A DNA stretch of 32,000 bases from Acutalibacteraceae bacterium (GTDB lineage: Bacteria; Bacillota; Clostridia; Oscillospirales; Acutalibacteraceae): positions 25,576-57,575 of the forward strand of contig JAZNOZ010000003.1 in assembly GCA_045589395.1 (NCBI GenBank), given 5' to 3'. Both the position numbers and the translations under genes were made by a program. Below, one piece after another: positions 11,446 to 18,195 of this stretch; the first letter of the stretch is position 1, and each line of letters starts with the position of its first letter. The notes below the pieces were generated by a model. The model searched no databases, had not been told where the DNA came from, and worked only from the letters and a program-made list of their open reading frames with translations.

Positions 11446-11530
11446 TCAATCGAATCAGAGCTGCGACGGTTAATTCTTTGATTTAGGGAAGTTGCACAAA
11501 AAAACATTGATAATTATACAAAATAAATAT
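11441..11530 (+). repeat. left copy of the prophage-flanking direct repeat (attL region): a 52-bp core plus a 38-bp degenerate extension
   Basis: 11479-11530 versus 18144-18195 is 49/52 identical, with mismatches CAT versus TGC at 11505-11507. 11441-11478 versus 18106-18143 aligns without gaps at 28/38. Confidence 0.9.
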
Positions 11531-11540
11531 GTGATAATAA
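11513..11540 (+). other. hybrid dif-like recombination site (attL): conserved left arm and central region with a divergent right arm
   Basis: ATTATACAAAA (11513-11523), TAAATA (11524-11529), TGTGATAATAA (11530-11540). Identity with the right-hand copy stops 1 nt after the central hexamer. Confidence 0.5.
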
Positions 11541-11705
11541 CTTCCTTATGCTAGTTTTACAAAACCTTTCTTAATGTTATATTAATTGAAATTCTATGAA
11601 ATTGTATTGATATAAATCCTTTCTTAATATTTTACTATGAATTATACAAAATAATCAATGAAAAATCAATAGGTAGGGAAGCGAGCTGTTTGGCTCCTGA
11701 ACGAA

Positions 11706-11745
11706 CAACAACACTCACACAAGAAACCTTGTGTGAGTGTTGTTG
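11706..11745 (-). terminator. 18-bp perfect stem-loop ending the leftward (repressor) transcription unit
   Basis: CAACAACACTCACACAAG (11706-11723), loop AAAC, CTTGTGTGAGTGTTGTTG (11728-11745). It lies downstream of the 45-aa ORF on the minus strand. There is no clear U-run, so it could instead be a processing, packaging or minus-origin hairpin. Confidence 0.45.
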
Positions 11746-11786
11746 CTTATGCAGCGCAGTAACTTACTGTCTGCAGGAACTTGTTT

Positions 11787-11924
11787 TTATTCTTCAGAAG
11801 AGAATAGTCCTTTAGCTAAATTTATTATTGTTTCAATCAATCCGGAGAAAAATGTTATAGCTGCTTCTCCTAGTGTTTTTATTGTTTCCCAAAAATTAGA
11901 TAATGCTTCTATACACAATTTCAT
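11787..11924 (-). CDS. 45-aa acidic amphipathic peptide co-transcribed with the repressor (unknown function)
   Basis: Below the ORF-track cutoff. ATG 11924 lies 2 nt after the repressor stop, with AAGGAGA 6 nt upstream. Translation is MKLCIEALSNFWETIKTLGEAAITFFSGLIETIINLAKGLFSSEE. Confidence 0.5.
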   Translation of the reverse strand: MKLCIEALSNFWETIKTLGEAAITFFSGLIETIINLAKGLFSSEE

Positions 11925-11926
11925 TT

Positions 11927-15386: not shown

Positions 15387-15704
15387 TTGAATACTAATGA
15401 TGTTGTTGTTCAGGAAGTTCCTGAAAAGAAGCGTTCTTTAAAAAAGGTCGTTCTTATGTTCTGCGCGGTAGTTAGTGCTATGTTTTCTACTATTTTCAGC
15501 GCATCTGCAGCAACTCCGGATATGATCCCTTTAACTGCAGCCGGTGATGATCTTTCTAATTTGGGTACCGTTTTTACTCAGATTACATCATGGGTTACTT
15601 CTATAGTTTCTACTATAACTGCAAGTCCCGTGCTGCTTATCGGCCTCGGTATATTCGTTGTTGGTGCTATTATCGGCCTTGCATATCGTCTTATTCGTGG
15701 TTAA
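15387..15704 (+). CDS. major coat protein precursor (pVIII-like)
   Basis: Basic n-region KKRSLKK, an h-region and an AXA site SASA/A. The predicted mature peptide of about 64 aa has an acidic N-terminus (ATPDMIPLTAAGDD), one TM helix (VLLIGLGIFVVGAIIGLA) and a basic C-terminus (YRLIRG). TTG start has GGAGG 10 nt upstream; an internal ATG start (MFCAVV...) is possible. Confidence 0.75.
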   Translation: MNTNDVVVQEVPEKKRSLKKVVLMFCAVVSAMFSTIFSASAATPDMIPLTAAGDDLSNLGTVFTQITSWVTSIVSTITASPVLLIGLGIFVVGAIIGLAYRLIRG

Positions 15705-15765
15705 ATTTCTAAAAAAGGGGTGTTCCGTTTATAGGTGCGCCCTTTTTTTCTTGTGAGGTGTTTTT

Positions 15766-16407
15766 ATGATAACAACTTATTTTGGTGTTCCCGGATGCGG
15801 TAAGACTACTTTTGCTGTTCGTGAAGCTCAAAAGGAGCTTCGTAGGCTTAGAAAAGGGAAGTCAGCATATAAACATGTATTGACTAATTTTTATTGCAAA
15901 GATTGTGAGCAAATTCAATTAGATTGGCTTGATGATAAGAAAGCTTGTTTTTCTAAGATTTTAATTGATGAAGCTTCTGTACATGCTGATTCTCGTGATC
16001 ATAAATCTTTTCCAAAAGGATTGGTGCATTATAATGTAATGCATCGTCATGTTTATTGTGATATGAGTTTTTATACTCAAGACTATTCTCGTATTGATAA
16101 GACAATTCGTAATTTAACTTTTGATTTATGGTATGTTACTAAGCCTGTTATTCCTTTTTTTAATCGCTTTTCTGTAGCTCGCCGTATATTCAGAAATGTT
16201 ACTATCAATGAATTTACATCAGAGCTTGTTATGGGCTATCGTTTTTCTAAGTTTCTTGAGCGTATTTTTTGTCCTACTATGAAAATAATTTATCGACCTC
16301 GCTGGTATAAGTACTTTGATTCTTTTGAAGAGGGGGTTCTTGGTAACCGTGAAGAGATTGAGTATATTTCCTGGGAGAATGTTTTACCGCCTCCCGAGGT
16401 TCTTTAA
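15766..16407 (+). CDS. Zot / pI-like P-loop morphogenesis ATPase (short form, no TM segment)
   Basis: Walker A is GVPGCGKT at residues 7-14 and Walker B is ILIDEA. HRHVYCDMSFYTQDYSRIDKTIRNL matches the Zot-family ..hRH.g.Dii.itQ....id..iR block. GAGGTG lies 5 nt upstream. Confidence 0.8.
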   Translation: MITTYFGVPGCGKTTFAVREAQKELRRLRKGKSAYKHVLTNFYCKDCEQIQLDWLDDKKACFSKILIDEASVHADSRDHKSFPKGLVHYNVMHRHVYCDMSFYTQDYSRIDKTIRNLTFDLWYVTKPVIPFFNRFSVARRIFRNVTINEFTSELVMGYRFSKFLERIFCPTMKIIYRPRWYKYFDSFEEGVLGNREEIEYISWENVLPPPEVL

Positions 16408-16867
16408 TAGGTATATTTGTAAGTCTGCCTTTTTTATTTTTTATGATTCTGATGATGCTATTGATGTTGTTCTTGAGGTTCCCCTCAGACATGCGAGAGC
16501 TGCAGCTCAGACTTATGATCGTAAGTTTTCTGTTGTTATAGAAAATCGTTTTATTTTTTGGTATTTGTATTATTTTTCTTTTTGATAGGGAAGTGTTATA
16601 TCTTCCCCTTAATCAGGCAGGGAGCGAAGCGATGTTCTGCTCATTAGACTTTTCAATATTTTCATCAGGGAGCTAAAGAAAATGTTGTAAAGTCGGTTTG
16701 CTTCCTGCGCAGCTGCAGCAGTTTTCAATGCCGTCATCAAGGAACATAAGACGGTGTTGTAAACTGTGAAAATGTTGTTTTTTAATATGGAAAAGGGGAG
16801 TACCAGCTCCCCGAAACACCGACCGACTATCAGCGGTGTTTCAACCACAAAATTTGAGGTGTGAAAA
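16408..16867 (+). other. structured intergenic region; candidate replication origin and/or packaging signal
   Basis: 12-bp palindrome GAGCTGCAGCTC (16497-16508). Hairpin GGGAAG-N8-CTTCCC (16588-16607). Direct repeats GAAAATGTTGT (16678-16688 and 16768-16778). Adjacent hairpins GGGGAG-N6-CTCCCC (16795-16812) and GAAACACCG-N12-CGGTGTTTC (16813-16842) lie just upstream of rep. The region is locally G+C-rich. Confidence 0.5.
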
Positions 16868-17950
16868 ATGCTCATAACTGTTGATACGCTTGACTTTGCA
16901 GTACCTGACTGCAGTATAGATTTTTTGTTGCGTTTTTTAAGGCTTGAAGATGTAGATTTTGAAGAAGGCAAAACAATGCGAGTAAACTATAAAAAGAGTT
17001 TGTATATTACAGGTTTGAAGATAGGTTATGATAATGATGTTTCAAAATACAGTTGTTATGTTAATATGTCCGGTCAAGGATGCAGATTATATGAAGATTT
17101 AATTGGTGACGGTTTTGATTGGTTTGTTTTCATTAAAAGTTTAATTGATTTGAATGTAGATTTCAGAAGAATAGATATTGCAGTTGATGATTATACAGAT
17201 TTAATTAATCCGAATAAGTTAATTAAATATTATGCAGCAGGCAAGTATGCCGGTTCTCTTCGTTCCTGTGAAGGTCATATTTTTAAGCGTGAAGAGTTTC
17301 AAGCCGGTGCCGACGGTGGGCATTTTATTGTTCGAGTGTATAACAAAGCTCTTGAGCGTGGCTATTCAGAAGAGGAGCTCGGACATCCTTGGGTAAGATG
17401 TGAAATGCAGCTTCGCGATAAAAAAGCTACACAATTTATTGATGAATGGATTTCATCAGGTGACTTGTGCAAAATATATTGCGGTCATTTGTTAGAGGGC
17501 ATTCGATTTTTAACTAAACCGAATGATTTGAAAAATTCTCAGCGTATTCCGGTAGCTCCGTTCTGGAAGAAGTTTTGCCATGATGCGCAGCGTATACCGT
17601 TTATAGGTGTTCCGGGAACAAAGTACAATTTATCTAAATTGGAGCGTTATTTGAAGCATCAGGTAGCTTCAAGTGTTCGTACATATATAGCAGTTAATCA
17701 TTTAACACCCGAAAGGCTGTATAAGTTTTTTGACAACGATGACATTAAACTTAATAAGGACCAGCTTGCTTTACTTAAAGTTCATGACAGAAATGATTAT
17801 TTATATTCAGAAATTTTTGATAATATGCCGGCAGATACAGTTGATAAGATTGCAACAAAGGAAGAAATTGAAGAAGATATAATTAATGCTATTATCGGCG
17901 CTGATGTCTATCAGGAGCCGCAGCAAATGAGGTTTGATGATGTTAAATAA
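16868..17950 (+). CDS. rolling-circle replication initiator, Rep_trans (pT181 RepC/RepD-like) family
   Basis: 360 aa. RIDIAVDD, HFIVRVYNKALERG (Tyr-containing block resembling the RepC/RepD active-site ..IRIYNK.. block, from memory) and WVRCEMQLRDKKA are present. GAGGTG lies 7 nt upstream. Confidence 0.8.
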   Translation: MLITVDTLDFAVPDCSIDFLLRFLRLEDVDFEEGKTMRVNYKKSLYITGLKIGYDNDVSKYSCYVNMSGQGCRLYEDLIGDGFDWFVFIKSLIDLNVDFRRIDIAVDDYTDLINPNKLIKYYAAGKYAGSLRSCEGHIFKREEFQAGADGGHFIVRVYNKALERGYSEEELGHPWVRCEMQLRDKKATQFIDEWISSGDLCKIYCGHLLEGIRFLTKPNDLKNSQRIPVAPFWKKFCHDAQRIPFIGVPGTKYNLSKLERYLKHQVASSVRTYIAVNHLTPERLYKFFDNDDIKLNKDQLALLKVHDRNDYLYSEIFDNMPADTVDKIATKEEIEEDIINAIIGADVYQEPQQMRFDDVK

Positions 17951-18146
17951 TGATGTTTTGTTGTTTTTATATTTCTCACAAAAAGAAACAGTTTTAACAG
18001 AATTATATGAACAAAAATTAACCGCCGTGACACATAGGCCACGACGGGATATTAAAGATGATGAAATTGTAGAGCTTCTTCAGCTCAGAGCAAAGCTTGA
18101 TTTGCTACATACAATCGAAACAGAGCTTCGAGGTCTGATAATCTGA
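17937..18146 (+). CDS. 69-aa protein overlapping the rep 3' end (unknown function; gX-position accessory protein)
   Basis: ATG 17937/17940 follows GAGG and overlaps the rep stop. The stop TGA 18144-18146 is the first triplet of the right direct repeat. Confidence 0.5.
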   Translation: MMLNNDVLLFLYFSQKETVLTELYEQKLTAVTHRPRRDIKDDEIVELLQLRAKLDLLHTIETELRGLII

Positions 18147-18195
18147 TTTAGGGAAGTTGCACAAAAAAATGCTGATAATTATACAAAATAAATAT
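18106..18195 (+). repeat. right copy of the prophage-flanking direct repeat (attR region)
   Basis: Partner of 11441-11530 (see that feature). Confidence 0.9.

Follow-up and report, generated by a model that had tools for sequence, protein, structure and literature searches.

How does a filamentous phage that brings no integrase gene come to reside in the chromosome of a spore-forming Gram-positive gut anaerobe? The question is raised by a stretch of 32,000 nucleotides (nt), here called the window, from the genome of an Acutalibacteraceae bacterium (assembly GCA_045589395.1, contig JAZNOZ010000003.1, positions 25,576–57,575). We judge it likely that the window carries an apparently intact 6665-nt inovirus-type prophage of the kind known as a Xer-exploiting integrative mobile element (IMEX), and that this prophage is seated at a probable dif site of the Oscillospirales, beside a gene for an Xer-family recombinase.

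The original prediction for this locus described a 6665-bp unit between two 52-bp direct repeats. Both repeats are present, at 11479–11530 and 18144–18195, with their starts 6665 nt apart. They are identical at 49 of 52 positions and the mismatches are three adjacent positions, 11505–11507 (CAT versus TGC). The content of the two copies is redefined here, as only the last 19 nt of each (a 12-nt arm, a 6-nt central region and one further nt) form part of the recombination core. In the left copy, the initial 33 nt and about 43 nt further upstream are a diverged copy of the right end of the phage, and the similarity between the repeats continues leftward to give 95 nt at 84% identity.

The true core is a 30-nt site, AATTATACAAAA-N6-TTTTGTATAATT, which by its 12+6+12 layout is of the tyrosine-recombinase type. 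A hybrid form of the site (attL) is at the repressor end of the prophage, and the intact, perfectly palindromic host form (attR) is at the Rep end. The two share one arm and the central region and then diverge, which is the reason that the repeat identity stops within the core. The same pair, i.e. a hybrid site at the repressor end and an intact site at the Rep end, bounds the relatives L002, L053, L135 and L140 (L numbers are our labels for loci and contigs), and attL-type hybrid sites recur at position 4500 of L002, position 13 of L135 and positions 40 and 8457 of L140. Free genomes (L137/L139 and L128/L129) hold a half-degenerate attP consisting of a perfect arm, a host-type centre (TAAATG in L128 and L129) and a degenerate arm. 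Thus the attP mimics the host site and the prophage lies between one hybrid and one intact site, as is typical of an IMEX. No integrase, recombinase or transposase domain was found by Pfam and PHROGs in any open reading frame (ORF) between 11542 and 18176.

A second direct copy of the recombinase arm lies inside the left end of the prophage (11640–11669), and equivalent second arms are located approximately 80–130 nt from the core in L137/L139 and L140. No inverted arm with two or fewer mismatches was found near attP; the arms of the attP region are direct repeats. A folded single-stranded DNA (ssDNA) attP of the CTXphi type was considered and is not supported, as there is no inverted arm and the junction does not give a forked hairpin fold.

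The 76 nt immediately left of attL were considered as conserved host sequence and this was rejected. Other hosts do not have these nt and the independent phage contig L004 carries them, therefore the segment is read as the scar of an earlier related phage. The segment, which separates attL from the xer promoter, includes the C-terminus (final 13 codons) of a p70-like ORF and a further 31 nt. A present-day version is seen in L140, which comes from a near relative of the host with the same central TAAATA and a near-identical flank past attR. Its array starts with a phage end and a hybrid site, continues with phage 1 and another hybrid site, and closes with a second element, whose ends are identical, ahead of the intact site.

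The second element of L140 (positions 8457–13531, ~5 kb) has the ends of the neighbouring inovirus but other genes (DUF2726, a helix-turn-helix (HTH) protein, and three ORFs, of 227, 163 and 454 aa). Either a satellite or another type of phage may be represented; an N run is present near the end of the scaffold. Small elements with a REP_ORF2-G2P-type Rep occupy the same palindromic site in L002 (1711–4500), L009, L061, L085 and L127. The L002 element contains a 195-aa integrase fragment and its boundary is a 12+7+12 variant of the site.

The inovirus gene set and its relatives

An inovirus interpretation was put forward in the original prediction and is supported. It follows from the Zot and Rep_trans matches, the relatives of the pI protein, the features of the coat precursor, an operon rich in transmembrane (TM) segments, the T-rich strand and the structured non-coding regions. 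The unit length of 6665 nt, together with a rolling-circle initiator, is within the range of inoviruses (about 5–15 kb, circular). A leftward XRE gene had been said to lie opposite a rightward operon of coupled genes, and the ORFs match this description. All 14 ORFs of the element are intact and tightly coupled. The T content of the plus strand is 38% in the element and 31% in the flanks; across the element GC skew is positive and AT skew is about −0.2.

Profile searches that had been proposed for two of the ORFs returned the families expected, i.e. Zot for pI with a score above the cutoff and Rep_trans for the initiator (Table 1). Among PHROGs, pI matches Zot-like and morphogenesis families. 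The Walker A motif (G7–T15) and D68–E69 of pI are invariant across 38 homologs. Gut inoviruses have replication initiators that match Rep, and a weak match is to the RstA-like Rep of Vibrio phage VAI. The intergenic region upstream of rep, which was described as structured, has an ssDNA fold of −66.4 kcal/mol (z = −6.6 against shuffles).

The ORF predicted to be a pVIII-like coat precursor, p105, has the features of one. It displays a long Gram-positive-type signal peptide that ends at SASA|ATPD, followed by a 64-aa mature part with an acidic N-terminus, a hydrophobic TM core and a basic C-terminus, i.e. the pVIII pattern. Sequence homology to known pVIII families was not found in Pfam and PHROGs. 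TM or signal segments are predicted in eight operon proteins in all (p51, p392, p78, p113, p163, p52, p42 and p105). These include the 78-, 113-, 163-, 52- and 42-aa membrane or hydrophobic proteins that had been claimed, which are present with the same sizes and in the same order in L003, L135, L137 and L140 and are candidates for minor virion and assembly proteins.

The p392 protein was called pIII-like. The architecture of a signal peptide, an ectodomain and a C-terminal anchor is confirmed; no Pfam or PHROG profile matches it and homology to the pIII N1, N2 and CT domains was not detected. An AlphaFold2 (AF2) model displays a confident N-terminal beta-sandwich at residues 30–240 (pLDDT about 80–89), which is of a generic type resembling a carbohydrate-binding module (CBM). 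A fold search with this domain gave weak matches to CBM3-like and phage fiber or receptor-binding domains (TM-score at most 0.37). In the model these matches fit an adsorption protein; they do not amount to homology to pIII. The p96 protein, described earlier as gV-like, is conserved in position, with homologs in L002, L135 and L137, and a word-index search retrieved only two homologs. It has no match in Pfam, PHROG or NCBIfam profiles or among PDB sequences, and the AF2 model, based on a 3-sequence alignment, is beta-rich with a pLDDT of 52, which is too low for a fold search. The gV assignment is thus a positional guess. Capsid, terminase, tail, secretin and lysis families gave no Pfam or PHROG match in any ORF of the element, in agreement with the statement that secretin, capsid, terminase and tail genes are lacking.

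Homologs of pI number more than 900. They are mostly on short contigs, many of 5–7 kb. A tblastn search of GenBank phages with pI gave 65 records, nearly all of them uncultivated gut-virome Inoviridae with names such as "Dulem virus", "bajarodino virus" and "Inovirus sp."; the best relative is the "ZOT protein" of Dulem virus 71 (L001, PP511497.1) with 50% identity. Gene order is unchanged on contigs whose pI is 96% identical. The ENA contig L137 exceeds one genome unit, with the order 54-42-55-pI-Rep-p77-junction-XRE-...-pI again, and L139 covers the junction Rep-p77-attP-XRE. In the IMG/VR contigs L128 and L129 the two ends overlap by 44–47 nt. The wrap-around in L137 and L139 and these overlaps show that relatives exist as circles or tandems, and a circular or wrap-around junction of the kind anticipated for the phage is seen in relatives. 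A scan of viral contigs with the single pI protein gave no match, and an alignment-based scan gave seven distant loci only.

Dulem virus 71 has a "recombinase" of its own at 3598–4509. Within the pI clade there are therefore some phages with an integrase and others that would rely on a dif mimic.

Alternatively, the element might have ceased to form virions and be maintained passively, as a satellite or as a remnant that is cryptic or defective. The degenerate attL arm could make excision inefficient, as for the CTX phage, there is only one copy with one origin, decay products (the scars) are present at the locus, and pI is short and, unlike the pI of Ff phages, is without a TM segment, a feature which also tells against the main interpretation. 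This alternative is nevertheless unlikely, since 14 of 14 ORFs are intact and tightly coupled, the gene set is kept in relatives at 50–96% identity, some of them circular, and relatives from virus-enriched fecal samples have been deposited as complete inovirus genomes.

The palindromic site in Oscillospirales and the neighbouring recombinase

The site was sought with the pattern AATTATACAAAA-N6-TTTTGTATAATT in one genome per species and was found in at least 120 species. All counts of sites given here are among the matches listed. Every site is from a different assembly, with one locus per assembly, and the hosts are Oscillospirales-type Clostridia (Acutalibacteraceae, Ruminococcus, Oscillospiraceae, Butyricicoccus, Anaeromassilibacillus, Ethanoligenens and others). 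Complete chromosomes with the site are CP181263.1, at about 1.865 Mb of 2.53 Mb, and OZ006971.1, at about 1.661 Mb of 2.06 Mb. An ortholog of the recombinase (48–74% identity) is located 15–472 nt from the site, with a median of 70 nt, in 56 of 120 loci. Many of these xer-linked loci have radA approximately 1 kb away on the other side and no phage, and are thus empty sites (e.g. L024, L118, L075 and L103). Empty-site alleles composed of the recombinase gene, one dif-like site and radA had been expected in relatives of the host, and they are found in dozens of related species.

Of the xer-linked loci, 27 extend for 2 kb or more to either side. In 23 of these the GC skew is positive before the site and negative after it, and the reverse order is never seen. 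Loci without an adjacent xer, which have a different gene context, display the same switch in 12 of 22 cases and the opposite one in 2. Among 39 loci, 24 have their peak of cumulative skew no more than 1 kb from the site, where 13.7 would be expected, and 11 have it no more than 300 nt away, where 4.5 would be expected. The genes of the window are also oriented so as to converge on the site.

The dif sequences of B. subtilis and E. coli were used in the comparison of arms. The arms of the site agree with classical XerD-binding arms at 7–8 of 11 positions (F. alni dif from PMC3025954). A search of the window for a better classical dif candidate gave none above background. The symmetric arms suggest a single binding specificity.

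A flank of the form NRGGG (TAGGGG or TAGGGT) is present on one side only in 92 of the 120 sites, and when it is placed on the right the centre is always of the TNAAWR form (TGAATA, TGCAAA, TAAATG, TAAATA etc.). In 24 loci the flank faces xer and in 18 it is on the opposite side. L002 and L053 have the phage directed toward xer, and in the window it is directed away. As the side of the flank differs between loci, the whole site is inverted between lineages, with phage orientation following it. The variable orientation of the centre relative to xer had raised the possibility of a site without polarity; this was rejected, as the one-sided GGG flank shows that the site is oriented.

A subset of genomes have the centre TGCAAA or TCAAAA and no xer ortholog within the 8-kb locus (L026, L031, L032, L042, L044, L057 and L062; also L073, L087, L091, L092, L095, L123 and others), and skew still tends to switch at these loci. 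In such lineages the linkage of xer to the site has apparently been lost.

The recombinase has a complete catalytic set (RLAEL, GKGNKER, HKLRH and GH..Y). Its best matches among PDB sequences are XerD (1a0p) and XerA (5hxy), and its linkage to spoIIM is vertically conserved. A second, distant tyrosine recombinase (25–29% identity to the Xer of the window) is found within a few kb of the site in L008, L028, L049, L054, L064, L070, L071, L102 and L107; it may act as a partner Xer, or else be an integrase with no relation to the system.

The presence of one locus per assembly, the adjacency to xer, the skew switch and the XerD-like arms are the grounds on which the palindrome is considered a probable chromosomal dif with a linked recombinase gene. 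Several points weigh against the interpretation as a whole. The scan pattern demanded that both arms be perfect, so that the "perfect palindrome" is partly an effect of ascertainment. The recombinase scores below the NCBIfam equivalog cutoffs for XerC (208 bits, cutoff 335), XerD (193, cutoff 330), XerA (192, cutoff 220) and XerS (138, cutoff 267) and is a member of the Xer-type superfamily only. Because of the synteny of the xer-linked loci, the skew patterns seen at them do not count as independent observations, and the skew profile of the window itself is weak, about 0 in the left flank and negative in the right flank. Patterns of the exact attP and of phage-end DNA were absent from the viral and metagenome contig collections searched. 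Lastly, Xer catalysis, ssDNA and virions are deduced from sequence throughout.

Some of these points would suit an inovirus prophage inserted at an ordinary attB, where the palindrome serves the adjacent recombinase specifically, for attachment or regulation, e.g. as the operator of a domesticated integrase. The site does fall where the promoter of the recombinase gene is expected, at a median distance of 70 nt upstream, the enzyme is not a XerC or XerD equivalog, and the skew evidence is largely from syntenic loci with the window's own switch unclear. Against it are the single copy per assembly across an order-level clade, the skew switch in loci that have no adjacent xer, and the arms that resemble XerD-binding arms. 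The conserved recombinase-spoIIM linkage and the precedents of XerS/difSL and XerL, which display the same linkage of gene and site (PMC1914069, PMC9765430), also count against this explanation, and the chance that it is correct is small.

Integration by a route other than Xer, i.e. RecA homologous recombination between the right end of the phage and the resident 76-nt scar, or strand transfer by Rep, is very unlikely. The scar and the phage end do share 84% identity over 95 nt and Rep_trans proteins are related to MobT relaxases; however the identity breaks exactly inside the 6-nt centre of the 12+6+12 site, the same junctions are found in unrelated hosts that are free of the scar (L002, L053 and L135), and the half-site attP is present in free phages. 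An element that is a rolling-circle plasmid in integrated form, or an integrative mobilizable element, rather than a virus, as Rep_trans (typical of pT181-type plasmids) and a weak MobT match could indicate, is scarcely credible in view of the Zot/pI ATPase, the pVIII-like coat precursor and the run of small membrane proteins, the lack of mobilization, resistance or plasmid-maintenance genes in the element, and nearest database relatives that are annotated Inoviridae genomes.

For the IMEX interpretation the following sequence of events can be proposed. The double-stranded replicative form would carry the dif mimic, with one good arm, the central 6 nt of the host and one degenerate arm, and the host Xer recombinase encoded next door would recombine it with the chromosomal dif. 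The orientation of insertion would be set by that of the site, which varies among host lineages. An intact dif would be left at the Rep end and further elements could integrate there, which would explain the tandem arrays and the scars. On release of the XRE switch, Rep would nick an origin for which the structured intergenic region is the probable place. Once the ssDNA is coated, the pI ATPase and the small membrane proteins would extrude it across the membrane, and in the process it would gain the pVIII-like coat. No secretin would be needed because the host has no outer membrane.

A broader proposal, for which we consider the chances about even, is that Oscillospirales-type Clostridia (Acutalibacteraceae, Ruminococcaceae, Oscillospiraceae and relatives) have an undescribed Xer/dif module that resolves chromosome dimers. 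Its site would be AATTATACAAAA-TNAAWR-TTTTGTATAATT-NRGGG, symmetric and oriented, and usually just upstream of its own divergent Xer gene. The site would be a hotspot for integrase-less inoviruses and for at least one other family of small ssDNA-type elements (with a REP_ORF2-G2P Rep), and these would be the first Gram-positive IMEXs.

Further features of the locus

Table 1. Positions in the window of the prophage features, the attachment sites and the adjacent recombinase gene.
Feature	Position	Strand	Remarks
Gene of the host's Xer-family tyrosine recombinase, 333 aa; candidate phage integrase	10391–11392	−	Phage_integrase and SAM-like N-terminal domain
Scar of an earlier related phage	11436–11511	+	Aligns with 18101–18176 and with the end of phage contig L004
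attL, hybrid core	11512–11541	+	Perfect arm AATTATACAAAA, central TAAATA, degenerate phage arm TGTGATAATAAC
Second direct recombinase arm copy; possible accessory binding site	11640–11669	+	AATTATACAAAA-TAATCA-degenerate
18-bp perfect hairpin	11706–11745	+	Apex CACAAG-NAAC-CTTGTG, conserved in L137–L139
45-aa ORF	11787–11924	−	Translational coupling with the repressor gene
XRE/Cro-CI type repressor, 81 aa	11927–12172	−	HTH_3 E = 5e-13; phrog_8 E = 9e-18
Divergent control region	12173–12316		GGATGTAT three times: 12199–12206, 12224–12231 and, inverted, 12244–12251
Rightward operon	12317–18146	+	Intergene gaps −17 to +61 nt, save the 460-nt intergenic region
p51, small membrane protein	12317–12472	+	TM-like segment at residues 3–42
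p96, soluble; candidate ssDNA-binding protein	12482–12772	+	Kept at the same position in related phages
p392, secreted, with C-terminal membrane anchor; candidate adsorption (pIII-analogous) protein	12830–14008	+	Signal-like TM 1–28, anchor 361–390
p78, p113, p163, p52, p42; five coupled small membrane proteins	14001–15368	+	TM predictions; gaps −8 to +4 nt
p105, pVIII-like major coat precursor	15387–15704	+	TTG start after a GGAGG site
pI/Zot-like morphogenesis ATPase, 213 aa	15766–16407	+	PF05707 23.4 bits (cutoff 20.3); phrog_197 E = 3e-11
Structured intergenic region upstream of rep; candidate replication origin	16408–16867	+	460 nt
Rep_trans rolling-circle initiator, 360 aa	16868–17950	+	PF02486 E = 8e-29; Rol_Rep_N E = 2e-5; phrog_453
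p70, small conserved ORF	17934–18146	+	Overlaps the end of rep; 68–77 aa counterparts in L002, L004, L135, L137 and L140
attR, intact host site	18177–18212	+	Perfect palindrome AATTATACAAAA-TAAATA-TTTTGTATAATT (18177–18206) plus one-sided flank TAGGGT

In the control region the GGATGTAT copies surround a promoter-like TTGACT-17-TATTAT. Promoter and terminator scans of this region gave nothing above chance, and this includes the TTGACT-17-TATTAT match taken alone. The ssDNA fold of 11660–11790, which surrounds the 18-bp hairpin, has a z of −6.8 against shuffles. The hairpin is a candidate terminator of the repressor operon and/or an ssDNA signal (packaging or minus-strand origin). The 45-aa ORF beside the repressor gene gave a match to a phiKZ internal head protein that is below threshold (22 bits, cutoff 27) and is probably spurious.

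The window contains further sequences that resemble parts of the site. The 14-mer AATTATACAAAATA occurs six times (0.13 expected). At 18684–18750 there are two direct 33-nt repeats, each consisting of a AATTATACAAAATA arm and then a degenerate second arm, which may be old hybrid-site scars or pseudo-dif sites. They are within a 169-nt spacer from the radA stop codon to a 33-aa peptide gene; the gap is only 15 nt in L002. This gene (18484–18585, minus strand, downstream of radA) encodes a membrane peptide, MNKKMRATATRRATIVLILVSLGVVNVLRKYTK, that is also present in another species at L002 1555–1656. Its last codons, RKYTK*, resemble the recombinase arm, and it has no family match. Short repeats containing CCTTTCTT are located in the left end of the phage at 11558–11584 and 11611–11637. 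Approximately 100 nt past attR (18276–18313) there are CCTTTCTT-like motifs and a GTGATAATAACT match to the degenerate attL arm, which are not collinear. These motifs may be further scars or a chance likeness in AT-rich DNA.

Comparison with known systems

Inovirus prophages of Gram-positive gut anaerobes are of a known kind, to which this one adds a new member, and the remark in the original prediction on how few filamentous phages of Gram-positive hosts are known no longer holds (PMC6813254; PMC10061712). Roux et al. 2019 (PMC6813254) catalogued thousands of inoviruses, including some of Gram-positive hosts; Xer is not mentioned in the main text. Burckhardt et al. 2023 (PMC10061712) described inoviruses of 6.5–8.5 kb with direct-repeat flanks that are secreted from spore-forming Enterocloster, and mention neither an integrase nor Xer. 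A 2017 review of Xer systems lists IMEXs in Proteobacteria only. Kono et al. 2011 (PMC3025954) predicted dif in 97 Firmicutes with classical profiles, and Ruminococcaceae are not mentioned. A literature search, which was not exhaustive, gave no description of an IMEX or of this dif/Xer system in Clostridia. The Xer/dif aspect thus appears to be new, the Xer-exploiting lifestyle having so far been described only for phages of Gram-negative bacteria, e.g. the cholera-toxin phage.

Inoviruses of Gram-positive gut anaerobes have been recognised only recently and their route to lysogeny has so far not been worked out. The locus offers a testable answer for one abundant clade, i.e. that these phages borrow the dimer-resolution machinery of the host, as does the cholera-toxin phage in Vibrio. 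It also indicates a likely dif and recombinase for gut bacteria that include relatives of Ruminococcus, Acutalibacter, Butyricicoccus and Anaeromassilibacillus, and a candidate clostridial Xer/dif system becomes directly testable. The 30-nt site may serve as a marker for replication termini in metagenome-assembled genomes and for delimiting small prophages that standard pipelines label as hypothetical proteins. It may also be of use in integration vectors for genetically intractable gut Clostridia.

Ff phages (M13/fd) share with this phage a rolling-circle replication initiator, a candidate ssDNA-binding protein, a coat protein with a signal peptide, an anchored adsorption protein, a pI ATPase and a structured intergenic region. 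Unlike Ff, the phage has no secretin (pIV), its Rep is of the Rep_trans and not the gpII type, its gene order differs, p96 and p392 have no detectable homology to gV and pIII, and it is lysogenic with an XRE switch. The inoviruses of gut Clostridia (PMC10061712; Dulem and bajarodino viruses; PMC6813254) likewise have genomes of 5–8.5 kb with a pI/Zot homolog, 10–16 small ORFs and flanking direct repeats, and their hosts are spore-forming gut Firmicutes. However the hosts of the Enterocloster and Hungatella inoviruses are Lachnospiraceae and the host here is Oscillospirales-like, and Dulem virus 71 has a recombinase of its own whereas this phage has none.

Among IMEX phages, VGJphi and TLCphi of Vibrio cholerae (PMC5357621, PMC4246890) likewise have no integrase and an attP that is a dif mimic, and in TLCphi one arm of the attP is degenerate as it is here. 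The IMEX phages of Proteobacteria also integrate at dif, here a probable dif, regenerate the intact site at one end and form tandem arrays with satellites. They use a XerC/XerD site, whereas the host here is Gram-positive and the symmetric 12+6+12 site is beside a single Xer-family gene. In CTXphi an inverted pair of sites forms the folded ssDNA attP; this phage lacks an inverted pair.

With regard to the host system, XerS/difSL of streptococci and lactococci (PMC1914069), XerH/difH (PMC3325230) and XerL/dif (PMC9765430) are single-recombinase systems in which gene and site are linked, and the corresponding adjacency here is found in 56 of 120 listed loci. The site here, like theirs, is at a skew switch. 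The recombinase in the window scores best with the XerC, XerD and XerA models and not with XerS or XerH, the sequence of its site differs, and the arms are perfectly symmetric. As with XerL/dif of Legionellales and LME-1, the site at this locus is revealed by a mobile element that carries a dif mimic (PMC9765430).

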